Below, piece after piece: positions 1,742 through 13,587 of a DNA stretch of 14,915 bases. Numbering within the stretch: position 1 is the first letter of the stretch; each line of letters starts with the position of its first letter. This stretch comes from a virus. Taxonomy: Duplodnaviria; Heunggongvirae; Uroviricota; Caudoviricetes. The stretch is from IMG/VR virus record IMGVR_UViG_2537562091_000005. One strand, written 5' to 3'. The notes under the pieces were generated by a model, which saw only the letters and a program-made list of their open reading frames with translations, made no database searches and had not been told where the DNA came from. Made by a program: the position numbers and the translations under genes.

Positions 1742-1995
1742 GAACACCTCCATTATTATTTCCAGTGGTTCGTTTATTCCATCTTTCGAGTGCTTCTTTT
1801 TCACTTCCACCATAACCGGTTCGGGATTCGCATCCGTTACCCTGGAACGCCGTGCATTACTGGCGGCGCAGGAAGCGTTAAGTACGGCAATTGATGCGCA
1901 TGATGATGCAGTCCAAGCCGTTTACCGGAAAGCGCATTTCAGCGGCGGCGGTTCTCCTAGCGATTCTGTCGTAGTGCATTGATTGAAATTAATCG

Positions 1996-2017
1996 TACCG
2001 AACTGTTTTGTTCGGTA
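1996..2017. promoter_or_regulatory. Inverted repeat TACCGAAC-N6-GTTCGGTA upstream of the ydaW-like gene (operator or weak terminator candidate)
   Basis: Perfect 8-bp arms (1996..2003 and 2010..2017) with a 6-nt loop, seen directly. No clean U-run on either strand, so an operator or RNA structure is more likely than an intrinsic terminator. A TTGAAA -35-like hexamer lies at 1984..1989. Confidence 0.3.
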
Positions 2018-2027
2018 TCAGTTAAAT

Positions 2028-2445
2028 GTAACGCTGCGAGCGTTACAAGGTGAAAACAAATGGCTTCAAACTGGATAAAGCTCGAAGTTATTACGCCGGA
2101 TAAGCCGGAAATATTCAGGCTTGCTGAGATTCTGAATATTGATCCAGATGCCGCATTAGGGAAAGTCATTCGCTTCTGGGCATGGGCGGATCAACAAATG
2201 ATAGACGGTAACGCAGAGTGTAACGCTCGCGGCGTTACAAAAAGTGCAATAGATCGCATCACTTTTATGGCTGGTTTTGCTGATGCGTTAATTCAGGTTG
2301 GATGGCTGGTCGAAACTAATGGTGTGTTGTCGCTTCCTAACTTTGAGCGCCATAACGGGAAAAGCTCTAAAAAACGGGCGGTTACAAACGAGAGAGTAAC
2401 AAAAATACGAGAACTGAAACGAAAAGGTAACGCTGCCAGCGTTAC
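2028..2445. repeat. Dispersed family of 19-bp perfect palindromes GTAACGCT-N-AGCGTTAC, each followed by an A-run
   Basis: Seen directly: 2028..2046 GTAACGCTGCGAGCGTTAC; 2220..2238 GTAACGCTCGCGGCGTTAC (extra half-site GTAACGC at 2209..2215); 2427..2445 GTAACGCTGCCAGCGTTAC; degenerate copy GTTAC-N10-GTAAC at 2381..2400. Copy 1 ends 1 nt upstream of the SD of the ydaW-like gene (2047..2053); the others lie inside its coding sequence in the same codon phase (encoding N-A-x-x-V-T-K). Confidence 0.7.
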
Positions 2446-2563
2446 AAAAACGGATCAAAAAGCGTTATCTGCATCATCGTCTGCCTGTCATGGGCTGTTA
2501 ATCATTACCGTGATAACGCCACCGCCTACAAAGAGCAGCGCGACAAAAATGCCAGAGAACTGA
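2060..2563 (+). CDS. Phage protein, YdaW-like N-terminal fragment; last ~30 codons are out-of-frame Rz sequence (pseudogene-like fusion)
   Basis: ATG at 2060 with SD AAGGTGA 6 nt upstream. The N-terminal ~130 aa ([46 protein letters not shown]...) look like a real phage protein, possibly DNA-binding or replication-associated. From about 2461 the ORF reads through the Rz N-terminal region in another frame (ending ...[19 protein letters not shown]), which indicates a deletion fusion. Family assignment is uncertain. Confidence 0.5.
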
Positions 2564-2895
2564 AGCTGGCGAACGCGGCAATTACTGACATGCAGATGCG
2601 TCAGCGTGATGTTGCTGCGCTCGATGCAAAATACACGAAGGAGTTAGCTGATGCGAAAGCTGAAAATGATGCTCTGCGTGATGATGTTGCCGCTGGTCGT
2701 CGTCGGTTGCACATCAAAGCAGTCTGTCAGTCAGTGCGTGAAGCCACCACCGCCTCCGGCGTGGATAATGCAGCCTCCCCCCGACTGGCAGACACCGCTG
2801 AACGGGATTATTTCACCCTCCGGGAACGACTGGTAATGATGCAGGCCCAACTTGAAGGTGCTCAGCAATACATAACCGAACAGTGTTTAAAGTAA
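2464..2895 (+). pseudogene. rzpR: Rz-like inner-membrane spanin gene, 5'-truncated (start and first ~12 codons lost)
   Basis: The frame open from 2431 translates to ...[102 protein letters not shown]..., which I recognise as lambda Rz from its TM segment onward. There is no start codon upstream of the TM segment; the first ATG (2590) gives a 101-aa product lacking the membrane anchor. Confidence 0.8.
2651..2836 (+). CDS. rzoR: Rz1-like outer-membrane lipoprotein spanin (o-spanin), 61 aa, nested in the +1 frame of Rz
   Basis: [24 protein letters not shown]... has a signal peptide with lipobox LVVVGC and a proline-rich mature part ([15 protein letters not shown]), typical of Rz1. SD AAGGAG lies 7 nt upstream of the ATG. 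The embedded arrangement inside Rz is the classical spanin architecture. Confidence 0.85.
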
Positions 2896-2981
2896 AATCT
2901 TAACTACAATATGATTCATTTTGATGATTGTTTCATAAGGAACAGTGAAGTAAGATCTAAGAGGAGTTAAATTTTATACAG

Positions 2982-3015
2982 TATAATCATAATATTGCAG
3001 CAAGGTGGTTATAAT
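2982..3015 (+). promoter_or_regulatory. Putative promoter -10 elements upstream of trkG (TATAAT at 2982..2987 and 3010..3015)
   Basis: AT-rich intergenic region with two perfect TATAAT hexamers; no good -35 match. Pattern-based only. Confidence 0.2.
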
Positions 3016-3032
3016 TGAAAGAATATTTAGAT

Positions 3033-4490
3033 ATGAATACATCTCATGTAAGAGTTGTTACTCATATGTGTGGGTTCCTGGTTTGGCTCTATAGTCTTTC
3101 AATGTTGCCACCAATGGTTGTAGCATTGTTTTATAAAGAAAAAAGCCTGTTCGTTTTCTTTATAACTTTCGTTATATTTTTTTGTATTGGTGGCGGAGCG
3201 TGGTATACAACTAAGAAATCTGGCATTCAATTACGTACCCGTGATGGGTTTATTATAATTGTAATGTTTTGGATTTTGTTTTCTGTTATTAGTGCATTCC
3301 CTTTATGGATTGACTCAGAACTTAATTTAACGTTCATTGATGCTCTGTTTGAAGGGGTTTCTGGAATAACAACAACAGGAGCAACTGTAATTGATGATGT
3401 TAGTTCATTACCTCGGGCATATTTGTACTATCGGTCACAGTTAAATTTTATAGGTGGTTTAGGAGTTATTGTTCTGGCGGTTGCTGTATTGCCATTATTG
3501 GGTATTGGTGGTGCAAAGCTTTATCAGTCAGAAATGCCGGGGCCATTTAAGGATGACAAACTCACTCCCCGCCTGGCCGATACGTCACGGACACTGTGGA
3601 TAACTTATTCTTTATTAGGTATTGCTTGTATTGTCTGTTATAGACTTGCAGGAATGCCTTTGTTTGATGCTATTTGTCACGGGATTTCCACAGTTTCGCT
3701 TGGTGGTTTCTCAACTCATAGCGAGAGTATCGGATATTTTAATAACTATTTGGTTGAGCTGGTGGCTGGTTCTTTTTCCCTGCTATCGGCTTTCAACTTC
3801 ACTCTTTGGTATATTGTTATTAGCAGGAAAACGATAAAACCTTTAATCAGAGATATTGAACTTCGTTTCTTTCTGTTAATAGCCTTAGGGGTGATCATTG
3901 TTACCTCTTTCCAGGTCTGGCATATAGGTATGTATGACTTGCATGGAAGTTTTATTCATTCGTTTTTTCTTGCCAGCTCCATGCTCACTGATAATGGTTT
4001 AGCTACGCAGGATTATGCAAGCTGGCCCACGCACACGATAGTGTTTTTGCTGTTGTCAAGTTTCTTTGGGGGATGTATAGGTTCAACTTGTGGTGGAATT
4101 AAGTCACTTCGATTTCTTATACTTTTCAAACAAAGCAAACACGAGATAAATCAGCTTTCTCATCCCAGAGCGTTGTTGAGTGTAAATGTAGGAGGGAAGA
4201 TAGTTACAGATCGTGTAATGAGGTCTGTATGGAGTTTCTTTTTTCTTTATACTCTCTTCACGGTGTTTTTTATACTGGTGTTAAATGGTATGGGATATGA
4301 TTTTCTTACATCATTTGCAACAGTGGCTGCATGTATTAATAATATGGGATTAGGTTTTGGGGCTACTGCATCGTCATTCGGAGTGCTTAATGACATTGCA
4401 AAATATTTAATGTGCATAGCTATGATTCTTGGTCGCCTTGAAATTTATCCTGTTATTATATTGTTTTCAGGTTTTTTTTGGCGCTCCTAA
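3033..4490 (+). CDS. trkG: Trk-system potassium uptake membrane protein TrkG (prophage-encoded moron), 485 aa
   Basis: Polytopic membrane protein (MNTSHVRVVTHMCGFLVWLYSLSMLPPMVVALFYKEK...) with repeated glycine-rich selectivity-filter-like motifs typical of TrkH/TrkG; recognised as Rac TrkG. Markedly AT-rich relative to neighbours. Start ambiguity: ATG 3033 has no SD, whereas in-frame TTG 3015 is preceded by AAGGTGG at a 6-nt spacing. Confidence 0.9.
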   Translation: MNTSHVRVVTHMCGFLVWLYSLSMLPPMVVALFYKEKSLFVFFITFVIFFCIGGGAWYTTKKSGIQLRTRDGFIIIVMFWILFSVISAFPLWIDSELNLTFIDALFEGVSGITTTGATVIDDVSSLPRAYLYYRSQLNFIGGLGVIVLAVAVLPLLGIGGAKLYQSEMPGPFKDDKLTPRLADTSRTLWITYSLLGIACIVCYRLAGMPLFDAICHGISTVSLGGFSTHSESIGYFNNYLVELVAGSFSLLSAFNFTLWYIVISRKTIKPLIRDIELRFFLLIALGVIIVTSFQVWHIGMYDLHGSFIHSFFLASSMLTDNGLATQDYASWPTHTIVFLLLSSFFGGCIGSTCGGIKSLRFLILFKQSKHEINQLSHPRALLSVNVGGKIVTDRVMRSVWSFFFLYTLFTVFFILVLNGMGYDFLTSFATVAACINNMGLGFGATASSFGVLNDIAKYLMCIAMILGRLEIYPVIILFSGFFWRS

Positions 4491-4576
4491 TATATGGCTG
4501 ATTTATAATTGTGAGTTTAATATTATGTTGACTCACTCATTGATCCAATACCTAACTTTACCAGCAACACCTCCGC

Positions 4577-4610
4577 CCCCAGTAGCACTGGCTGCTGGGG
4601 TGCGTTTTAT
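4577..4610 (+). terminator. Possible intrinsic terminator downstream of trkG
   Basis: CCCCAG (4577..4582) pairs with CTGGGG (4595..4600) around a 12-nt loop, followed by TGCGTTTTATT. The long loop makes it a weak candidate. Confidence 0.3.
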
Positions 4611-4627
4611 TCATAAAGCAAGGATGT

Positions 4628-5419
4628 ATGAGCGAGAAATTAAAGATAGTCTATCGCCCATTACAAGAATTGTCACCGTATGCGCACAACGCCAGGACGC
4701 ACAGCCCTGAGCAGGTGGCACAACTGGTAGAAAGTATTAAGCAATTCGGCTGGACTAATCCGGTGCTGATTGACGAAAAGGGCGAAATTATTGCGGGTCA
4801 CGGTCGTGTTATGGCGGCTGAAATGCTCAAAATGGATTCTGTTCCGGTCATTGTTCTGTCTGGCCTGACGGATGAGCAGAAAAAGGCGTACCGCCTGGCA
4901 GATAATCGCCTGCCGATGAATGCTGGCTGGGATGAAGATCTGTTGCGGATGGAGCTGTCGGACCTAATCAATGCTGATTTTGATGTCTCCCTGACAGGCT
5001 TCATCCCGACAGAAATTGATGAACTGTTGACGGATGTTTTGCCCGGTACAGGAAATGAGGAGGAGCCGTATACGACGAAAATTGATACGCCTGTTTATGA
5101 GCCGTCGGGCGGTAAACCGGATATCAGTGAACTGTACGACGATACGAAAACGCAGGAGCTGATCAGCCGGATACGTTCGGCTTCCCTTGAGCCTGATATT
5201 GAGAAATTCCTCCTGTGTGCGGCAGAACGTCACACGGTGTTTAATTTCAGCAGAATTGCGGACTATTACGCTCACGCCCCCGCTGAAATTCAGTGTTTTT
5301 TCGAGGAGTCGGCGCTGGTGATCATTGATTATCAGCAGGCTATTGAAAATGGATTTGTCCGGATGACGCAGCGCATGGTGGAGATCATGCATGGTGGTGA
5401 GGAGGAGGAATATGCGTGA
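4628..5419 (+). CDS. ParB-like nuclease N-terminal domain protein (ParB/Srx superfamily), 263 aa
   Basis: N-terminal region IVYRPLQELSPYAHNARTHSPEQVAQLVESIKQFGWTNPVLIDEKGEIIAGHGRVMAA fits the ParB N-terminal fold (conserved NAR..S and GHGR motifs), followed by an acidic C-terminal extension. AGGA lies 3 nt upstream of the ATG. No methyltransferase motifs are visible. Confidence 0.7.
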   Translation: MSEKLKIVYRPLQELSPYAHNARTHSPEQVAQLVESIKQFGWTNPVLIDEKGEIIAGHGRVMAAEMLKMDSVPVIVLSGLTDEQKKAYRLADNRLPMNAGWDEDLLRMELSDLINADFDVSLTGFIPTEIDELLTDVLPGTGNEEEPYTTKIDTPVYEPSGGKPDISELYDDTKTQELISRIRSASLEPDIEKFLLCAAERHTVFNFSRIADYYAHAPAEIQCFFEESALVIIDYQQAIENGFVRMTQRMVEIMHGGEEEEYA

Positions 5420-5498
5420 TGATTTTTGCGCCTTTATTCTGACTCACGGGCGACCGGACAAAGTTCTGACTTACCGAACGTTGCGTCGTGCTGGCTAG
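5412..5498 (+). pseudogene. 28-codon gene stub (MRDDFCAFILTHGRPDKVLTYRTLRRAG) with strong SD, likely remnant 5' end of a deleted or frameshifted gene
   Basis: ATG at 5412 is preceded by GGAGGAGGAA and overlaps the ParB-like stop (5417..5419), a coupled arrangement. It stops after 28 codons at TAG 5496..5498. The long capsid ORF is in a different frame. Confidence 0.3.
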
Positions 5499-6544
5499 CA
5501 AAAAACGCAAAAGCTGACGCCGCAGCAAAAGATCAGACGGTAACCGCGCCAGTTGCGCCTGAGGCGAAAACCGAAGATATCGTACCGGGGCCGTCAGCTC
5601 CGAATACCGGTGATCAAAATATTGGCACTGTTGATGTGAAAATTACTAAATCCAAAATGGCACCGGTTAAATGGAATGGTGAAGAACAACTGGCTCTTGG
5701 CCCTTCAGGGACTTACAACACCATTCTGGCTGATCAGTTTAAGCAGGCTTTTCGCGCCCTTGCAAACGAGGTTGAGGCTGATCTTGGTGCGTTGTATTTC
5801 GGTGCTTCCCGCGCCGTGGGAACCGCAGGGACAACGCCGTTTGGTGTTAAAGATGATCTTTCTGATGCTGCTCTGGCTCGTCAGGTTCTGGAGGATAACG
5901 GCGCACCGACAACCGATCTGCAGATGGTGCTTGGCTCCAGTGCCATTGCTAATTTGCGCGGAAAACAGTCTGTACTGTTTAAAGTGAATGAATCCGGCAC
6001 TGAACAGCTACTGCGTGAGGGCGTGTTGGGGCGTCTGGAGGGATTCAATATTCACAGTTCGGCAGGTGTAAAACGAGCGCCAAAGGTTGCTGCAACTGGT
6101 TATCTCGTGAATGGCGAGAAAAAAGAAGGCGATGTTCTTATTTCCATTGATACTGGTTCGGGGAGTATTTCTGCAGGTCAGATTGTTACGTTCGCTGGCG
6201 ATCCGAATCAGTATGTTGTGGCAGCAGCGACCAGCAATCTGATTACTCTTGCAGCGCCCGGACTGCGTCAGGATCTGGCCGATGATACTGCAATCACAGT
6301 TGTTGGCTCCTTTACTGCAAATATGGCGTTTGATCGCAACGCGTTTCTGCTGGCATCCCGTACTCCGGCAATGCCGGAAGGTGGCGATAATGCTGATGAT
6401 GTAATGAATGTTACGGACCCGATTTCAGGGATTACGTTCCAGATTGCACTGTATCGTCAGTATCGCCAGGTGCGCTATGAAGTTGGACTGGCATGGGGTG
6501 TTTCATCAGTGAAGCCGGCACATGGTTGTCTGATTCTTGGTTAA
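5426..6544 (+). CDS. Phage major capsid protein, P22-coat-like family; 5' end appears damaged (no ATG or SD in frame until codon 78)
   Basis: 372-codon frame with segments resembling P22 coat protein from memory (FRALANEVEADLG vs P22 ARKLANNVELKVA; GQIVTFAGD insertion-domain-like region; C-terminal GLAWGVSS). The frame opens at 5423 after a TGA; the only early starts are TTG 5426 (17 nt from the SD) and unsupported GTG 5636 and ATG 5657. Probably a pseudogene or frameshifted gene. Confidence 0.5.
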   Translation: MRLYSDSRATGQSSDLPNVASCWLAKNAKADAAAKDQTVTAPVAPEAKTEDIVPGPSAPNTGDQNIGTVDVKITKSKMAPVKWNGEEQLALGPSGTYNTILADQFKQAFRALANEVEADLGALYFGASRAVGTAGTTPFGVKDDLSDAALARQVLEDNGAPTTDLQMVLGSSAIANLRGKQSVLFKVNESGTEQLLREGVLGRLEGFNIHSSAGVKRAPKVAATGYLVNGEKKEGDVLISIDTGSGSISAGQIVTFAGDPNQYVVAAATSNLITLAAPGLRQDLADDTAITVVGSFTANMAFDRNAFLLASRTPAMPEGGDNADDVMNVTDPISGITFQIALYRQYRQVRYEVGLAWGVSSVKPAHGCLILG

Positions 6545-6554
6545 ACATTCAAAC

Positions 6555-6576
6555 GGGGCTTCGGCCCCATTTTTAA
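6555..6576 (+). terminator. Intrinsic terminator immediately downstream of the capsid gene
   Basis: GGGGC (6555..6559), TTCG tetraloop, GCCCC (6564..6568), then ATTTTTAA, beginning 11 nt after the capsid stop. Confidence 0.6.
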
Positions 6577-6586
6577 TGGAGGGCAT

Positions 6587-6763
6587 ATGGCCGGATTAAC
6601 TAAAGAGCAAAGAGCACAGCGTGAAGCCGCACAAAAAACGCAAATTGAGTTAGTGGTTATGGTGACCGATTATCAGATGTTTCCCGGCGCACCAACTATC
6701 GCTAATGTTCATCCTGATGAAGTTGACAACTGGAAGGCTATGGGCTGGAAAACTCAGGAGTAA
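6587..6763 (+). CDS. Small hypothetical phage protein, 58 aa (not in ORF track)
   Basis: ATG 6587 preceded by GGAGG (4-nt spacer); translation MAGLTKEQRAQREAAQKTQIELVVMVTDYQMFPGAPTIANVHPDEVDNWKAMGWKTQE; stop TAA 6761..6763, 3 nt before the next gene start. It fills the capsid-connector gap with gene-like spacing. Confidence 0.45.
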   Translation: MAGLTKEQRAQREAAQKTQIELVVMVTDYQMFPGAPTIANVHPDEVDNWKAMGWKTQE

Positions 6764-6766
6764 CAC

Positions 6767-7162
6767 ATGATCACTTACGTGACCTGTGATGACGTTGATA
6801 ATGCGTTTGGGAACGCCTGGACGAGTGAGAACGCTAAAAATAAAGCTGTTTTAATGGCTAATGCCTGGCTTAATGGCTTCAACCTGAAAATTAACCCATC
6901 CCGTATTCCGGAAGAGGTAAAACTTGCGGGAGCATATGCAGCCAGAATTGCCTCATTCGGTAAGTTGTTTCAGCAGAAAAATGATTCTGGCGTTGTTATC
7001 AGTAAAGCCGTGTCGGCTGACGGGGTCAGTGTATCGAAATCATTTGCTGAGTTGCCATCAAACAGCACTGTATTGCTTGAACCCGATTTACAGCTTGCGA
7101 TAGCACTGCTGAAACCGTACGGACTTAGTCGCTCACAAGTCAGGGTTGTGAGGGGGGGATAA
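6767..7162 (+). CDS. Putative head-tail connector / head completion protein (gp6-like), 131 aa
   Basis: Compact ORF following the capsid gene; assignment rests on position in the head-completion cassette and size, with no confident motif. Confidence 0.45.
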   Translation: MITYVTCDDVDNAFGNAWTSENAKNKAVLMANAWLNGFNLKINPSRIPEEVKLAGAYAARIASFGKLFQQKNDSGVVISKAVSADGVSVSKSFAELPSNSTVLLEPDLQLAIALLKPYGLSRSQVRVVRGG

Positions 7163-7545
7163 TGGGGCTTCGTGAAGAGATTCAGTCAGAGGTTGCCGCT
7201 GCTTTTGATGAGGATTTAGCGGACGCCGTGAGTGATTTTTCTGGTTCTTACGTTACGCACCGGCACTGGGATCCTGTGACGGAAACTGGCGGCGAATCCA
7301 CCGCAATCTATACCGGGCGAGGCGTGTTGACACGTTATAAGCTGGGCAGAATTGATGGGATTAATATTTTGCATGGTGACCTTAAATTAACCGCTCTGGT
7401 ATGCGAGGTTACGGATAAACCAGCTGTCGACCATATTATTGAGATTTATGATCCTGTATCAAGGCAGTTACAACGATACGAGGTAATTACAGCAAGTGTA
7501 GATCCTTCCGCATCAGTTTACTCTATCCAGTTAAGGAGAGCGTAA
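7162..7545 (+). CDS. Putative head-tail joining / head closure protein, 127 aa
   Basis: Start overlaps the upstream stop (TAATG) with a G-rich SD (AGGGGGGGA). Function assigned from position and size only. Confidence 0.45.
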   Translation: MGLREEIQSEVAAAFDEDLADAVSDFSGSYVTHRHWDPVTETGGESTAIYTGRGVLTRYKLGRIDGINILHGDLKLTALVCEVTDKPAVDHIIEIYDPVSRQLQRYEVITASVDPSASVYSIQLRRA

Positions 7546-7926
7546 ATGGCAAAGGCATGGGATATAGAACCGTCAATATTTGCCGGGATGATTGAGGAAG
7601 ATGTAGGGCTGAAGATTCGCTACATCGCTATTCAGATTCTTACTGCTATTGATATTGCTGCTCCGGTTGATACCGGACGTTTCAGAAATAACAACCTGGT
7701 GTCGTTACAGCATCCCGATTTTGGTATATCTGATAACGTGGATCCGAACGGTACGATTGCTGTTCAGCGTGGGATCGGGGTTATTTCGAAAGCTGCAAAT
7801 TACGGAGTTATTTATATCCAGAATAACCTTCCTTATGCAGAGACTCTTGAAAACGGTCATTCACAACAAGCGCCAACTGGCGTGTATGCCAACGCTTTTC
7901 ATGGTGTTTTACAGGCTTACAAATGA
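7546..7926 (+). CDS. HK97 gp10-like neck / tail-completion protein, 126 aa
   Basis: Contains PVDTGRFRNN and LPYAETLENG, resembling the gp10-family signature (DTG..R ... YA..vE.G) from memory. Starts immediately after the upstream stop. Confidence 0.6.
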   Translation: MAKAWDIEPSIFAGMIEEDVGLKIRYIAIQILTAIDIAAPVDTGRFRNNNLVSLQHPDFGISDNVDPNGTIAVQRGIGVISKAANYGVIYIQNNLPYAETLENGHSQQAPTGVYANAFHGVLQAYK

Positions 7927-8360
7927 CGTTTACTGAAATCAGAAATACGGTTATTTCCAGAATGACGGCACAGACGATTATTGATGGAAAAGACGTATTG
8001 TATCCGAACGCGCCAACGTTCGATCCTTCCGGTAAGTTAATCTGGGCGCGGTTAAGTAATATTCCCGGGCAGGCTGGAGTTAATGAAATTGGCGCGGGGC
8101 CGATTGTTTATCGCACGGGGATAATCATTATTCAGTTATTTGTCCCCGCAGGTTCTGGTTCAAAACTCATTACTGAGACAGCCGATAAATTGCGGGAACT
8201 GTTTGAGTTTCAGGATGACGATCGTCTCAGTTACCAGGCTGTTTCCTCAACCAGCCAGACTACTGCGGACAGAATAACAGCACATAATTTACGCATAATT
8301 ACCTCTCGCTTTTCTGCAATAAAAAAGGCGCCATTTCTGGCGCCCGTATCTGGGTTATAA
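7923..8360 (+). CDS. Putative tail terminator / neck protein, 145 aa; 3' end runs through an opposite-strand terminator (possibly chimeric C-terminus)
   Basis: ATGA overlap with the upstream gene. The last ~15 codons (…SAIKKAPFLAPVSGL) are encoded by the hairpin that serves as terminator of the convergent J fragment, so the C-terminus may derive from a rearrangement joint. Confidence 0.45.
   Translation: MTFTEIRNTVISRMTAQTIIDGKDVLYPNAPTFDPSGKLIWARLSNIPGQAGVNEIGAGPIVYRTGIIIIQLFVPAGSGSKLITETADKLRELFEFQDDDRLSYQAVSSTSQTTADRITAHNLRIITSRFSAIKKAPFLAPVSGL
8320..8344 (-). terminator. Intrinsic terminator for the minus-strand J fragment
   Basis: On the minus strand: GGCGCCA, GAAA loop, TGGCGCC, then TTTTTTATT, beginning about 20 nt past the J stop (stem at plus 8327..8333 and 8338..8344; A-run 8321..8326). 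Confidence 0.6.
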
Positions 8361-8363
8361 AAT

Positions 8364-10925
8364 TCAGCTAATCGTGATGCCTGCAGTGGCTTTCTTCATC
8401 ACAACAACCAGCAAATCGCTGATACTTGCTGTGGGATACCAACCATTTACCCACCATGCTGATACAGAAAACTCCAGTGTCATTACGCCACTGCCTGCTG
8501 GCATATCAATAACACCCGTGTAAATCAGAGTATTATCCAGAGCCGTTCGGTTATAAATTTCAGCCCCGTTTTTCTTCACTATCAGGCGGCATGACGAATA
8601 AGTATCGCTATTCTCCCGCTCATGTCTGGCACCGCTGAAAGCCACCGCTGGAATAACAATTTGCCGGTCAAACGGCTGATCGTCATAAACCCTGACGGTA
8701 ATGGTCCCTGATGGCCACCGCTCCGGTGCACGGGAGTCCCGGGGGAAAGCTTTGCCCACTGTTTTAACGAGATCGCCTTCAATCTGGTTCGCGGACAGTT
8801 TTCCCAGAACCCGACAGTTCTCGTTAATCGTGACGTTGTTGAGCGTCCCGGAGTTCGCATTCACGCTACCGCTGATATCGGCATTTTTCGCCGTCAGCCG
8901 CCCGTCCGGTGTCAGGGAAAATGCCGGAGGATTACCGCCGCTGGTAATGGTCGGAGCCGTCAGGCGTTTCAGGAACACGTCGTTCATGAATATCTGATCG
9001 CCCTGACCAACAAACATTGGTCTTGTGTTGCCATTAGACGGATCAATAAACGCGATACGGTTAGCGGCAACCAGGAACTGGCTCAGTTTGCCTTCCTCCG
9101 TATCCTCCATGCTGAGGCCAAGCCCCGCGACATAATGCCTGCCGTCTTCGGTCTGCTCAATTTTGACGCCCCACATGGCATTCCATTTATCGTTGGCGTC
9201 TTTCCACTCTTTCGAAAACTCCTCCAGTTTGCTGGCGTTATCCTCCGTCAGCTCGACTTTTTCCAGCAGCTCATTGCCGAGATGGGATTCGGTTATCTGG
9301 CCTTTGAAAAAATCCAGGTAACCTTCCGCATCATCGCTCGCCCGACCAACAGCCTCCACGAATGCCGATTTGCCGACGGTGTTCACACTGCGGATATAAA
9401 AGTAATAATCACGGCCCGGTTTGATATTGGTACTGGCGGCTATCCAGTACAGCGCCGTGCCAAGATAGCGGGCTGTGGTTTCAACCTGTCTGATATCAGC
9501 AACCCGCTTTTCCGAGAACCAGAACTCAAACTGTACCGTCGGATCATAAACGGCAAGATACGGCGTGGCGGTTATCTGAAAATAGCCCGGCGTCAGCTCA
9601 ATCCGCGACGGTGCTGCCGGTGCGGCAATCCGGAACGATACCGATGCCGGATCGCCCTGCTGTCCCCACGCATTTGCCGCCCGGACTGTCAGCCTGTAGT
9701 TCCCCAGCGCCAGCTGCCTGAAGCGGTATGTGTTTTCCGTCGTCCTGGCCGTGCTGACCAGCCGCTCACTGCCGTCGTCCGCTGCCACGGTCAGGCGAAG
9801 CATAAAGCTCACCCCCTTCACCACCTTCGGCGTGTCCCAGCGCGCCAGCACCTGATATTCCCCGCTGTCTGCGGTGACTTCGGCAGTCAGGTGCTGCACT
9901 GCTGGCGGCGTGACACCATTCACCGTGCCGCTCTGGTCGCCGTCAAAGTGCGCCCCGTTATCCACGATGGCTTCTTTTTCCGGTACATGCTGCACGGCGG
10001 TGATGGCATACGTGCCGTCGTCGTTCTCACGGATACTCACGCAGCGGAACAGGCGCTGGCGCAGCGTCGGCAGCTTCAGCCCCCACACGCTGTATCCGGC
10101 AACGCCGTCAGGAACACGACTCACTTTTACCTTCACGCCGTCGGTGACGGACTGGACCTCCACGCTGACCGGATTGCCACTTCCGTCAACCAGGCTTATC
10201 AGCGTGGTACCGGAGGATGGCAGCGTGATTTCACGGTCGAGCGTCAGCGTCCGGGTCTGGCTGTTCACCGCCAGCACGCGCCCGCCGATGCTGATACCCG
10301 CATAGTCATCATCGCAGATTTCAATGACATCCCCCGGTACATGGCGAAGCCCTTCTGCGCCCACGCTGAAGTCCACGGTCTGCGTTTCCAGCAGCTCCGT
10401 TTTAATCAGCCACAGCCCGGCGCGGTGTGCCTGCCCCCGACTGGTACAGCCAAAGGCATCCATCTTCGTGACGTTACGGCCGTAACGGGCAATGGCCTGC
10501 GTATCCTCCACGAGCTCTGTCGCCGTCTCCCAGCCGTTATCCGGGTCAATCCAGTTCACCTCAACGGCATTATGGCGGTCCTTCAGGGCGCTGAAGCTGT
10601 AGCGGAACGGCGCGCCATCATCCGGCATCACCACATTACTGCGGTTATAGGTCCACACCTTATCCGACGGTCGGTCCTGCACGAACGTCAGCGTCTGCCC
10701 GTTCCATACCGGCATACAGCGCATCGCCGAGCAGAAATCACTGAGCACATCCCACGCCTTGCGCTGTGTGGTCAGCCAGGCATTACAGGTAATGCGCGGC
10801 TCCGTGCCGCCAAAGCCGTCCGGCACTGACTGGTCGCAGTACTGGCCGATGACATACAGCGCCCATTTGTCCACATCCGCCGCACCAAGACGTTTCCCCA
10901 TGCCGTAGCGCGGGTGGGTCAGCAT
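8364..10925 (-). pseudogene. Lambda J-like host-specificity / tail-tip protein, N-terminally truncated and inverted relative to lom and stf
   Basis: From [50 protein letters not shown]... to the C-terminus the translation closely matches lambda gpJ as I recall it, including FN3-like repeats and the C-terminal receptor-binding region. About 280 N-terminal residues of a ~1130-aa J are absent. The ORF-track extension to 11030 (GTG start, 35 non-J codons) is antisense to lom and has no SD. Confidence 0.8.
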
Positions 10926-11171
10926 ATGGCTTACAGCCGAGTGTCGACCTTCTCCGGGGATTATCTCCGCGTAACTGACAACAAGGGGAAAACGCACGAT
11001 GTGCTGACCGGAAGTGATGACGGTCGCCACAGCAATACGTCTCTGGCGTGGGGGGCTGGCGTGCAGTTTAACCCGACCGAATCCGTGGCCATTGATATTG
11101 CTTATGAAGGCTCCGGCAGTGGTGACTGGCGCACTGACGGTTTCATCGTGGGTGTCGGTTATAAATTCTGA
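10926..11171 (+). pseudogene. lom (Ail/Lom family outer-membrane protein) 3' fragment, last ~81 codons only
   Basis: C-terminus ...[43 protein letters not shown] matches the Lom/Ail beta-barrel C-terminus with terminal Phe. The signal peptide and N-terminal two-thirds are missing. Confidence 0.8.
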
Positions 11172-11197
11172 TTAGCCAGGTAACACAGTGTTATGAC

Positions 11198-11226
11198 AGC
11201 CCGCCGGTTCAGGCGGGCTTTTTTGT
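11198..11226 (+). terminator. Intrinsic terminator downstream of the lom fragment
   Basis: AGCCCGCC (11198..11205), GGTTCA loop, GGCGGGCT (11212..11219), then TTTTTTG. Confidence 0.65.
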
Positions 11227-11235
11227 GGAGTGGAT

Positions 11236-13587
11236 ATGGCAGCAGTAAAAATCTCAGGTGTGCTGAAAGATGGTGCGGGAAAACCAATACAGAACTGCAC
11301 TATTCAACTGAAGGCAAAGCGTAACAGCACCACGGTACTGGTGAACACGGTGGCCTCTGAAAATCCGGATGAAGCCGGGCGTTACAGCATGGATGTTGAG
11401 TATGGCCAGTACAGTGTCATCCTGCTGGTTGAAGGTTTTCCGCCTTCACATGCCGGGACCATTACCGTCTATGAAGGTTCCAGACCAGGTACGCTGAATG
11501 ATTTTCTTGGTGCCATGACGGAGGATGATGCCCGTCCGGAGGCACTGCGCCGTTTTGAACTGATGGTGGAAGAAGCAGCACGCAACGCTGAAGCCGCCTC
11601 TCAGAGCGCAGCGGCGGCAAAGAAATCCGAAACTGCAGCGGCATCATCGAAGAACGCGGCGAAAACCTCAGAAACGAATGCAGCTAATAGTGCACAGGCG
11701 GCAGCGACCTCACAGACTGCATCAGCAAACTCCGCGACAGCAGCCAAAAAATCAGAAACCAACGCGAAAAACAGCGAGACAGCCGCAAAGACGAGCGAAA
11801 CCAACGCAAAGTCCAGCCAGACGGCAGCGAAAACCAGCGAAACGAATGCCAAAGCCAGTGAAACTGCGGCAAAAAACAGCCAGGTTGCGGCAGCCGGTTC
11901 TGCGACTTCAGCAGCTGGATCAGCAACTGCTGCGGCTAACAGCCAGAAAGCTGCGAAGACGAGTGAAACTAACGCAAAGTCCAGCCAGACGGCAGCGAAG
12001 ACCAGCGAAACGAATGCCAAAGCCAGCGAAACTGCGGCGAAAAACAGCCAGGATGCAGCAGCCCAAAGCGAGAGTGCCGCAGCTGGTTCTGCAAGTGCGG
12101 CGGCTTCTTCTGCCACTGCATCAGCCAACAGTCAAAAAGCAGCAAAAACCAGTGAAACCAACACAAAGGCGAGCGAGACTGCGGCGACTAACTCGGCGAA
12201 AGCATCCGCTGCAAGCCAGATGGCTGCAAAAGCAAGTGAAGACGCAGCCAGAGAGTATGCAAGCCAGGCAGCAGAGCCGTATAAATATGTCTTACAGCCA
12301 CTGCCTGATGTGTGGATACCGTTTAATGACTCGATGGATATGATTACAGGATTTGGCCCGGGATATAAAAAAATAACAGTGCGCGATGATGTGGTCACTA
12401 TACCATCCGACAAAATTGTCCCGTTTTCCCGCGCGAGTTCCGCGACCTATATCAATAAGTCCGGCGCTCTTACCATTGCAGAAATTAATGAGCCACGTTT
12501 TGAAAAAGAAGGGCTGTTAATTGAAGGGCAGAGAACAAATTACTTCACAAACTCAAACGCTCCGGAATTGTGGAATAAAAATCCAGGCCTGAAGATAAGC
12601 GAGACAAAAACCGATTCCAGGGGTTTTAAATATGCAACGTTTACCCCAGAAAAATATTTAGATAGTTCTGGCTCATATGGAATTATATCAGGGGCAGCAG
12701 CAAATAAGATAGCGGTAGTCAAAAATGATGCAGTTACAATATCCTTTAGAGCAAAAGGGGATAATGTAAGATTTGCGGCTAGATTTGATAAAGGGGATTC
12801 GCCAGTTGCTGTAGCTGCCATTTTTATTGATAGCGCCACACTAGATACATTCACGTCTGGAGCAGATGCGTCTAATATTGCTGTGAAAAATGTTGTTCGT
12901 GACGGTGAGTGGGTTGCTGTAGAGGCTGTTTATAAAGTAACAGACGACTCTACATATATTAACGGCGCCATTCTGATGTCAAACAAACTGGGTGCTAATT
13001 TTGATAAGACTAGTTTTATGGATGTAACCACCCCTCAAATAGAGCTAGGTTCTTGCTTATCATCATTTATTGTCACTCCAGGTGTTCCTGCGACAAGGGC
13101 GAGTGATATGGTTATTTTTTCAACCAGAAATAACATAAGTTCTGTCCCTTTAAGCTGTCTTGTTGAAATACATAAAAATTGGGACTCTACGCCAAATCAG
13201 GCCCCACGAATTTTAACCACTATTGGCGTGGCGACTAATGATGAACAACTGGTATTGGCTTTCAGGACGCCTACAAGTCCGGATGTAGAACCTTTACCTT
13301 ATGTTCAGTTTGGAGTGAGATCTGCATATCTTAGTCCATCTGTGAAGGCCGGGCGCAAAATGATTGCTGGTTTTGTCTGTAATAGCTCGACTGAATTTCG
13401 TTGCTGTTGTAATGGTTACCTGTCACCTGTTCAGACTTCGTCATGGAAGAATACCGGAGCTGCACATGAAATACGTATTGGGGGAACTTCTGCTGGAGGA
13501 GAACGTCACTTGTTTGGTCACGTTCGTAACCTGAGAATATGGCATAAAGAATTAACTGATGCGCAAATGGGGGAGAGTATTAAATGA
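11236..13587 (+). CDS. Side tail fibre protein, mosaic: lambda-Stf-like N-terminus, Ala/Ser/Thr tandem-repeat shaft, divergent C-terminal region with possible lectin-like (LamG/concanavalin-type) end
   Basis: ATG 11236 with GGAG 5 nt upstream (ORF track starts at in-frame GTG 11230). The N-terminal ~115 aa (MAAVKISGVLKDGAGKPIQNCTIQLKAKRNSTTVLVNTV...) match the lambda Stf N-terminus from memory. Residues ~120-330 are KTSETNAK-type repeats. The C-terminal ~450 aa are low-GC and end ...GERHLFGHVRNLRIWHKELTDAQMGESIK, reminiscent of LamG-like domain termini; no His-rich GxHxH motifs. Confidence 0.8.
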   Translation: MAAVKISGVLKDGAGKPIQNCTIQLKAKRNSTTVLVNTVASENPDEAGRYSMDVEYGQYSVILLVEGFPPSHAGTITVYEGSRPGTLNDFLGAMTEDDARPEALRRFELMVEEAARNAEAASQSAAAAKKSETAAASSKNAAKTSETNAANSAQAAATSQTASANSATAAKKSETNAKNSETAAKTSETNAKSSQTAAKTSETNAKASETAAKNSQVAAAGSATSAAGSATAAANSQKAAKTSETNAKSSQTAAKTSETNAKASETAAKNSQDAAAQSESAAAGSASAAASSATASANSQKAAKTSETNTKASETAATNSAKASAASQMAAKASEDAAREYASQAAEPYKYVLQPLPDVWIPFNDSMDMITGFGPGYKKITVRDDVVTIPSDKIVPFSRASSATYINKSGALTIAEINEPRFEKEGLLIEGQRTNYFTNSNAPELWNKNPGLKISETKTDSRGFKYATFTPEKYLDSSGSYGIISGAAANKIAVVKNDAVTISFRAKGDNVRFAARFDKGDSPVAVAAIFIDSATLDTFTSGADASNIAVKNVVRDGEWVAVEAVYKVTDDSTYINGAILMSNKLGANFDKTSFMDVTTPQIELGSCLSSFIVTPGVPATRASDMVIFSTRNNISSVPLSCLVEIHKNWDSTPNQAPRILTTIGVATNDEQLVLAFRTPTSPDVEPLPYVQFGVRSAYLSPSVKAGRKMIAGFVCNSSTEFRCCCNGYLSPVQTSSWKNTGAAHEIRIGGTSAGGERHLFGHVRNLRIWHKELTDAQMGESIK
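11590..12240 (+). repeat. In-frame tandem repeats inside stf (11-aa sub-repeats; about 100-nt near-identical copies at a 168-nt period)
   Basis: The peptide AAKTSETNAKSSQTAAKTSETNAKASETAAKNSQ occurs twice, 56 codons apart (about 11786..11885 and 11954..12053). The two copies differ by six synonymous transitions. A third partial copy follows (KAAKTSETNTKASETAA). Confidence 0.75.

Follow-up and report, generated by a model that had tools for sequence, protein, structure and literature searches.

The stretch of DNA analysed here, referred to below as the window, is a 14,915-nucleotide (nt) sequence of a Caudoviricetes virus (IMG/VR record IMGVR_UViG_2537562091_000005) that represents the remnant of a Rac-type lambdoid prophage, in which copies of the palindrome GTAACGC-N5-GCGTTAC lie immediately before and within a truncated gene for a phage replication initiator. 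Three exact copies are present (sites 1, 2 and 3; Table 1), and a search of the whole 14.9 kb allowing up to two mismatches found no further ones; the chance expectation for palindrome matches in the window is 0.06, and three copies were reached in none of 200 shuffles. Sites 1 and 3 have arms of 8 base pairs (bp) separated by a 3-nt spacer, and site 2 has 7-bp arms with a 5-nt spacer. An initial annotation of this DNA spoke of an array of perfect 19-bp palindromes, a description that slightly overstates the symmetry, the central bases being asymmetric.

The first copy had been placed directly against the Shine-Dalgarno sequence of the gene, which is where it lies, and the others had been assigned to the coding sequence in identical phase, imposing a repeated peptide. 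The latter holds for sites 2 and 3, whose offsets (160 and 367) are both 1 mod 3 and which encode G-N-A-x-[S/G]-V-T-K. A proposed fourth, degenerate copy at about 2376-2405 has no partner arm at 7-N5-7 spacing, and its codons are free of synonymous constraint. This stretch was rejected as a site: it is coding sequence for a conserved basic helix, in which, across the family of related genes described below, V113 is encoded by GTT in 32% of cases and third-position information is 0.14 bit. The A-tract claimed after each copy proves to be a short A-run in the window, and across the family the corresponding flank is weakly conserved (0.4-0.5 bits). Two further elements had been overlooked, a left half-box ahead of site 2 and a right half-box beyond site 3, the former being part of a four-codon insertion limited to enterobacterial members of the family (alignment columns 51-54).

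Table 1. Features at the initiator gene remnant, in window positions
Feature	Position	Strand	Description
Site 1	2028..2046		GTAACGCTGCGAGCGTTAC; non-coding; ends one base short of the Shine-Dalgarno sequence
Site 2	2220..2238		GTAACGCTCGCGGCGTTAC; within coding sequence, codons 54-60
Site 3	2427..2445		GTAACGCTGCCAGCGTTAC; in the linker, codons 123-129
Extra left half-box GTAACGC	2208..2214	+	precedes the left arm of site 2 by 12 bp; read as G-N-A
Right half-box GCGTTA(C)	2462..2467		16 nt past site 3; cut by deletion junction 2
Shine-Dalgarno sequence and initiator start codon	2047..2062	+	AAGGTG at 2047-2052, ATG at 2060; same start as the annotated 262-amino-acid protein in the intact E. 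coli locus L001
Initiator codons 1-135	2060..2467	+	99% identical to L001 4233-4640
Basic helix, codons 103-121	2366..2422	+	T109 at 2384-2386, V113 at 2396-2398; predicted model
Foreign tail of the chimeric reading frame	2468..2563	+	from the 3' end of K-12 ydaW into the rzpR lysis remnant
3' end of ydaT-family gene	1830..1982	+	stop codon at 1980-1982; bounded on the left by deletion junction 1 (1830-1840), which joins it to the ralR region of Rac
Separate inverted repeat	1996..2017		TACCGAAC-N6-GTTCGGTA; 8-bp arms; lies after the ydaT stop codon and before site 1

The gene that holds these sites had been called ydaW-like. This identity is rejected for the open reading frame (ORF) at 2060-2563, in which the ydaW-derived part is confined to the last 33 codons (2464-2563, from the 3' end of K-12 ydaW); the ORF represents a different allele of the gene at the ydaU position, cut at codon 135. 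Positions 1830-2467 match (99%) positions 4001-4640 of an intact E. coli locus (L001), which include the end of ydaT and the first 135 codons of a 262-amino-acid initiator that lies between ydaT and ydaV and is annotated as 'phage replication initiator YdaU family protein'. The full-length protein matches the PHROG 2509 profile, 'replication initiation protein', from end to end (E = 2.2e-86; residues 1-262 on profile positions 1-277 of 277), which supports the earlier comparison of the palindromes with iteron or operator sites contained in an initiator gene, in the manner of the lambda origin within O. In Pfam, searched at E <= 0.1 with the full-length and the window protein, no family was found, including Phage_rep_O, DUF1376 and PF07789; in Pfam and NCBIfam the initiator N-terminal domain has no model, the sole match being a weak one to DnaT at the C-terminus, and a sequence search of the PDB gave solely DnaT C-terminal matches. 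In an AlphaFold model the 135 retained codons encode a winged-helix-like core (about amino acids 16-91), the basic helix (amino acids 103-121) and the start of a linker. The gene of vB_EcoS-673R7 (L412), a complete Rac-like phage, is annotated 'DNA replication protein O' and precedes a DnaC-like gene. This allele is present in about 679 of 5,426 complete E. coli genomes; in K-12 and others the slot holds another allele.

Positions 1-1840 of the window correspond to positions 2001-3840 of the K-12 Rac prophage (L003), from intR to part of ralR, and positions 2464-4881 are 99.4% identical to L003 13214-15631, a segment that starts in the 3' tail of ydaW and takes in rzpR, trkG and ynaK. The chimeric ORF is a pseudogene produced by two deletions, with microhomologies TAC and GTTA: one runs from within ralR to the end of ydaT (1830-1840), and the other links initiator codon 135 with the tail of ydaW and rzpR (2464-2467). 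At the second junction, where the GTTA occupies 2464-2467, L001 reads gcgttaccagaggaagagaaagaggaaga and the window gcgttatctgcatc, continuing onward as L003 from 13214. The 167-amino-acid chimeric product is on record in exactly this form from E. coli H489 (EGB57999.1), annotated as an 'endopeptidase'. Gone from this Rac-like prophage are recET, kilR, sieB, racR, ydaS and ydaV, together with the initiator C-terminal domain and a polypurine tract, lost at 2467/2468, that follows the boxes in intact relatives. Since the deletion that ends in the right half-box took away this putative unwinding tract along with the C-terminal domain and ydaV, the loader gene, the origin in the window is, to judge from what is left of it, a fossil that would be unable to fire, and the ORF could still yield a DNA-binding domain along with its three sites.

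The N-terminal domain defines a large family (6,352 representatives of 50%-identity clusters at E <= 1e-3), and the loci compared came from Enterobacterales, Pseudomonas, Burkholderiales, Planctomycetes, Verrucomicrobia (including Akkermansia), Ignavibacteria, Acidobacteria and viral contigs. The palindrome is kept at +145 to +172 and at +334 to +399 from the start codon in homologues down to about 40% protein identity, contrary to one of the refuting outcomes named in the initial annotation, namely related genes that conserve the protein and lack the palindromes. The first of these positions is occupied in nearly all distinct homologues, and holders of the palindrome also include Xanthomonas phages; among cultured phages, TL-2011b and Xanthomonas CP2 have sites. 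An equivalent of the upstream site 1 (-32 to -44 from the ATG) is found in Enterobacterales-type members only, in 41 of 205 distinct loci.

Within the coding sequence, codon usage at the arms departs sharply from that elsewhere in the gene. Third-position information at the arm codons is 1.1-1.9 bits (GGT 83%, AAC 94%, AGC 65%, GTT 92%), compared with 0.13-0.22 bits at other invariant Gly and Val codons of the initiator. The residue preceding the Asn is G, S or C, with codons ending in GT, the residue preceding the Val is S, G, C or R, with codons ending in GC, and the three central spacer bases are unconstrained (0.2-0.4 bits). The extra half-box is read in a different frame, as Ala-Leu-Pro, with the rare codon TTA in 72% of sequences. 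Since the synonymous positions at the sites are frozen, selection there is, by the evidence of codon use, directed at the DNA and not at the peptide. That the peptide (G-N-A-x-S-V-T) is itself selected, or that the array arose by chance, seems extremely improbable. The near-invariance of G50, N55, V59 and T60 is what selection on the peptide would predict, but the synonymous freezing is restricted to arm codons, and residues flanking the arms vary only among amino acids with codons that preserve the box. Moreover, site 1 is non-coding, the half-box and the polypurine junction described below are read in several frames, and the peptide of site 2 forms a low-confidence loop in the AlphaFold model (predicted local distance difference test, pLDDT, below 50) that has undergone insertions and deletions and tolerates a four-residue insertion; chance, for its part, has to contend with the low expectation given above.

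The palindrome is confined to the initiator gene family and is not scattered genome-wide, the other outcome that had been named as refuting. In about 78 loci of about 6.4 kb, a handful of matches with two mismatches, and no exact ones, fell outside the three expected positions. In IMG/VR contigs, 165 of 187 exact matches among those listed (88%; 100 of 120 loci) lay within 600 bp of a gene of the family, and several of the remaining exact matches among those listed were at contig ends. The 37.8-kb genome of vB_EcoS-673R7 has exactly three sites, all at the initiator gene, and 8 of its 12 GTAACGC heptamers fall within 441 bp. No description of a GTAACGC box or of this initiator family was found in the literature. 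A site for a host transcription factor was considered and is unlikely, because the box is constant while the hosts span several phyla.

A pattern scan for GTCACGC-N5-GCGTGAC identified a variant box in the same family and with the same two-site layout, at 42 of 120 loci. The two sites of one genome go together: both are exactly GTAAC...GTTAC in 113 loci and both exactly GTCAC...GTGAC in 26, no locus combines a pure GTAAC with a pure GTCAC site, and base pair 3 agrees between the two sites in all but five loci. The type of box in turn tracks two residues of the protein. At residue 113, Val is found in 152 of 165 GTAAC-type proteins, and all 33 GTCAC-type proteins have Lys or Gln; at residue 109, Thr is found in 143 of the former 165 and in none of the latter 33, which have Ala, Ser or Gly in 29 cases (Fisher p, uncorrected, 2e-27 for residue 113 and 3e-23 for residue 109). 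The two residues stand one helical turn apart in the predicted basic helix, and the GTCAC-type members are dispersed over a noisy tree built by neighbour joining, requiring at least 14 changes by parsimony. A survey of residues 55, 109 and 113 in the top 150 cluster representatives was uninformative on the variant class, containing a single H/A/K member. Since box type tracks residues 109 and 113, the pattern is that expected if the initiator reads base pair 3 of the half-sites; the methyl groups of Val and Thr would then face thymine, and Lys or Gln would hydrogen-bond guanine.

Two loci (L238 and L245), both with Gly109 and Gln113, have a hybrid site 3 in which a GTAAC left arm is paired with a GTGAC right arm. 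This suggests that Gln113 tolerates either base pair and that it may represent an evolutionary intermediate between the two specificities.

The same data bear on a second explanation, in which the palindromes act as hairpins in single strands, either as mRNA stem-loops affecting stability or translation or as single-stranded DNA signals for primosome assembly or priming. As single-stranded DNA each site has a folding energy between -7.6 and -8.9 kcal/mol (z between -3.6 and -5.8), the GTCAC/GTGAC variant alters both arms symmetrically so that pairing is preserved, and many members of the family have a DnaT-like C-terminal domain. Pairing ability alone, however, would not explain why the sequence of the arms is conserved across phyla, why uncompensated deviations (GCGTTAG, CCGTTAC, ACGTTAC) are common opposite an unchanged left arm, or why box type correlates with residues 109 and 113. 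The extra half-boxes, repeated directly with a phasing of 11-12 bp, lack a partner arm, site 1 lies outside the ORF, and a search of positions 1800-2700 on both strands gave no Rfam match at E <= 1. We regard the hairpin explanation as quite unlikely. The 'terminator-like' calls on the minus strand in a promoter and terminator scan are the palindromes themselves. Arms of 7-8 bp are short for cruciform extrusion in duplex DNA, and a cruciform, which the initial annotation had also entertained, is not favoured.

What the window has lost can be seen in its intact relatives. Site 3 is the core of a cluster of boxes, with zero to five extra left boxes within 60 nt upstream (12 bp apart in the loci displayed) and, in 144 of 176 loci, an extra right half-box at +4/5 or +16 nt after the site. 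This right half-box runs straight into the polypurine tract, as in CCAGAGAAGAGAAGAGAAGA. The longest polypurine run has a median length of 20 nt, with runs of 16 nt or more in 136 of 201 loci compared with 10 of 839 control windows, and the tract exceeds the mean AT content of its locus by 0.11-0.18. The junction of half-box and tract, GCGTTACC-AGAGAAGAGAAG and onward, lies 20-60 nt past site 3 (L004-L403) and is conserved as DNA across phyla, being read in one frame in 115 loci, in another in 24 loci (a few of them frameshifted copies) and in the third frame in one locus; the resulting peptides differ by lineage (L-P-E-K-R-R-E or V-T-R-E-E-K-R). Because the tract is read in several frames, a role at the DNA level is indicated, and the charged, low-complexity peptide of the linker appears, from this change of frame, to be dictated by the DNA element.

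Sites 2 and 3 are separated by 189-245 bp, site 2 being the upstream one, and the spacing of roughly 200 bp, at first described as atypical for iterons, is no peculiarity of the window but a conserved design of the family. This distance shows no helical phasing, the spacings being mostly multiples of 3 that result from codon insertions and deletions. The gene 3' of the initiator was examined in nine loci of distant phyla and is IstB/DnaC-like in five, DnaB-like in two, lambda-P-like in one and without a Pfam match in one. In both L001 and vB_EcoS-673R7 the neighbour is ydaV, the helicase-loader gene that is absent from the window.

Taken together, these observations make it likely that the palindromes are recognition boxes of the initiator encoded by the same gene and that together they are the remains of a Rac-type lambdoid prophage's replication origin. 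The analysis itself establishes the identity and context of the gene, the selection on its DNA, the confinement of the palindrome to the family, the layout of the boxes and the covariation of protein and DNA; we infer binding, dimerisation and stoichiometry, looping, unwinding at the polypurine tract and origin activity, along the following lines. The N-terminal domain of the initiator, with its winged-helix-like core and basic helix, would bind the 7-bp GTAACGC boxes, one dimer occupying each palindrome and added subunits the half-boxes phased at 11-12 bp. The cluster of boxes in the linker region adjoins the AT-rich polypurine tract, which would serve as the site of strand opening. Looping or wrapping would bring the main cluster together with the second palindrome, about 200 bp upstream in the region encoding the DNA-binding domain, and with the enterobacterial third, about 190 bp higher and before the ribosome-binding site. 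The variable C-terminal domain, which is DnaT-like in this case, would recruit the product of the next gene, either the DnaC-like loader or the helicase.

At site 1 the initiator might also throttle its own translation, and autoregulation may be an added role of this site. An alternative is that the sites are autoregulatory operators and nothing else, at which the initiator, YdaT or YdaS represses translation or transcription. The position of site 1, one base from the Shine-Dalgarno sequence, is well suited to translational repression, dyad symmetry is typical of sites for dimeric repressors, and a spacing of 190-210 bp could allow repression loops. Site 1, however, is restricted to the enterobacterial subgroup, the two intragenic sites being the conserved core, and in the promoter scan no sigma-70-like promoter overlapped any site. 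Operators would have no need of an AT-rich polypurine tract and a helicase-loader gene linked to the main cluster; the boxes are conserved beside the gene in other phyla, whereas ydaT and ydaS are not; and box type tracks the residues of the initiator itself. We therefore consider operators without origin function unlikely.

Several points weigh against an origin. The element in the window is itself incapable of acting as one, and the searchable literature contains no binding, replication or unwinding experiment on this initiator family. Two or three unphased sites about 200 bp apart (189-245 bp) are not a classical iteron array; a single block of four or more close tandem iterons is absent, the extra half-boxes at 11-12 bp phasing occurring at the site-3 cluster only. 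The polypurine tract doubles as code for a conserved acidic/basic peptide. The correlation of residues with bases is uncorrected for phylogeny and the GTCAC loci came from a pattern search, and some GTAAC-type proteins have Gln or Ala at residue 113.

The closest known counterpart of the proposed origin is that of phage lambda, which lies in the middle of gene O and consists of 19-bp iterons with imperfect inverted repeats, bound by O dimers, next to an AT-rich tract (PMC7466680). In lambda and, as proposed, in intact members of the present family, the origin is located within the initiator gene, at the boundary between an N-terminal DNA-binding part and a C-terminal part that recruits the loader; both have dyad-symmetric units of 19 bp with an adjoining AT-rich tract, binding being predicted in the case of the present family; and in both the next gene encodes a helicase loader or recruiter, one member of the family having a lambda-P-like neighbour. 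As in lambda O, including its variants in Stx phages, N-terminal domain and sites are exchanged together as a cassette among related prophages. In contrast to lambda O, however, to which its N-terminal domain has no detectable sequence relationship (no Pfam match), the family has two or three positions 189-245 bp apart rather than four to six adjacent iterons, and one of its sites lies inside the region encoding the DNA-binding domain. Its main cluster is made up of 7-bp half-boxes at 11-12 bp phasing followed by a GA-rich polypurine tract as the predicted site of unwinding, and its box is near-constant across phyla, whereas lambdoid iterons differ even between close relatives. The initiator system would work like the lambda origin yet stands outside the lambda O family.

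The K-12 allele, ydaU, occupies the same slot between ydaT and ydaV, and its C-terminal 124 amino acids are 81% identical to the palindrome-type protein (BLASTP, residues 139-262 only). It too has repeats at the corresponding place in the linker, with an AT-rich stretch after them, but its N-terminal domain is an unrelated DUF1376 domain and its repeats are its own, of the TGTTCAAACA type, with spacings of 33 bp and 12 bp. These repeats (L003 11472-11590) comprise AGATGTTCAAACA-type direct copies and the inverted TGTTTGAACA, and homology between K-12 ydaU and the palindrome-type allele restarts at CCCCCTAAATCCCCC. Since the K-12 allele combines an unrelated N-terminal domain with its own repeats, N-terminal domain and repeats travel as a cassette. 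An active origin, oriJ, has been reported in Rac (PMC3945230), and the ydaU repeats are probably its box set.

Phage epsilon15 (L405) carries a distant member of the family, the 'DNA replication protein' AAO06105 (31% identity), in which the linker cluster is laid out in the same way and is followed by the same polypurine tract, CAGAGAAGAGAAGAGAAGAGAAGAT. This member differs in having GTCCGC twice and then GCGGAC twice (about 2810-2900) directly before the tract, in lacking the +150 site and in having Asp and Lys at residues 109 and 113. Gene 38 of SPP1, with oriL, and gene 18 of P22 are further cases in which an initiator binds repeats in its own coding sequence beside an AT-rich region; their protein families and repeats differ from those of the palindrome-type initiators.

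The boxes are also places at which the gene tends to be broken. By our own count, 11 of about 20 junctions in database proteins fall within boxes, which make up about 60 of 330-450 nt (binomial p = 2e-4 to 1e-5). At the position of site 2, three unrelated junctions with three different partners, in one E. coli assembly and two Logan contigs, break exactly between GGTA and ACGC. One Enterobacter-type locus breaks after the GCGTTA of site 3, the window breaks after the GCGTTA of its right half-box (2462-2468), and another locus breaks just beyond the half-box. Junction loci other than the window are L407 (about 1708), L408, L409, L410 and L411.

This clustering, with independent junctions at the same nucleotide, is what would be expected if the palindromes were recombination or cleavage sites, that is, points of module exchange or targets of a nuclease or recombinase. 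Such sites are nonetheless very unlikely and, although raised in the initial annotation, are not favoured here. The junctions resemble illegitimate joins, with 0-4 nt of microhomology and unrelated partners, rather than reciprocal site-specific events; no recombinase is tied to the gene across phyla, and the boundaries of the cassettes swapped between E. coli alleles fall outside the palindromes. Breakage is more simply seen as a by-product: the clustering could arise from breakage at a protein-bound or firing origin, or from hairpin processing. It suggests that origin boxes are hot spots of breakage in the decay of prophages.

A few observations concern the surroundings of the gene. The separate inverted repeat between ydaT and site 1 is kept in the intact E. 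coli loci L001, L407 and L411; it was scored as a terminator-like hairpin on the minus strand, has no T-run 3' of it on the plus strand, and may serve as an RNA hairpin or as a site for a regulator. Further downstream, positions 4881-10925 have no counterpart in K-12 Rac and resemble the structural-gene region of intact Rac-like phages. The lomR gene is unbroken (10925-11573, compared with L003 17539-19384), the IS5 element that splits K-12 lomR being absent.

A broader proposal, which we offer tentatively and consider rather doubtful as a whole, is that GTAACGC is a near-universal 7-bp code in phages of at least five bacterial phyla, that it is combined with a bipartite, looped origin design and a specificity set by two residues, that the boxes are preferred breakpoints in prophage decay, and that remnants such as the one in the window interfere with incoming phages of the same origin type. 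Under this proposal the code would be written into the initiator's own gene, and a lone palindrome in the region for the DNA-binding domain would be looped to the phased cluster beside a polypurine unwinding element. T109 and V113 would specify GTAAC, and Ala, Ser or Gly at residue 109 with Lys or Gln at residue 113 would specify GTCAC. If it is true, the specificity of origins would be predictable, and could be re-programmed, from sequence, and the two-residue code is open to test.

The locus in the window is a non-functional remnant, and the valuable part of the analysis is the result for the family. The principle of an origin embedded in its initiator gene, textbook knowledge for lambda, would be extended to a large, unannotated family that reaches from Rac-like prophages of E. 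coli to Planctomycetes and Akkermansia, and two copies of GTAACGC-N5-GCGTTAC about 200 bp apart, followed by a polypurine tract, would provide a rule for finding origins in thousands of phages and prophages. Database entries in which the ORF is labelled 'endopeptidase' or 'hypothetical' can be corrected. The sites also offer a clean case of a DNA signal that dictates the amino acids permitted in a protein, and the clustering of junctions at the boxes may help to explain how prophages decay.

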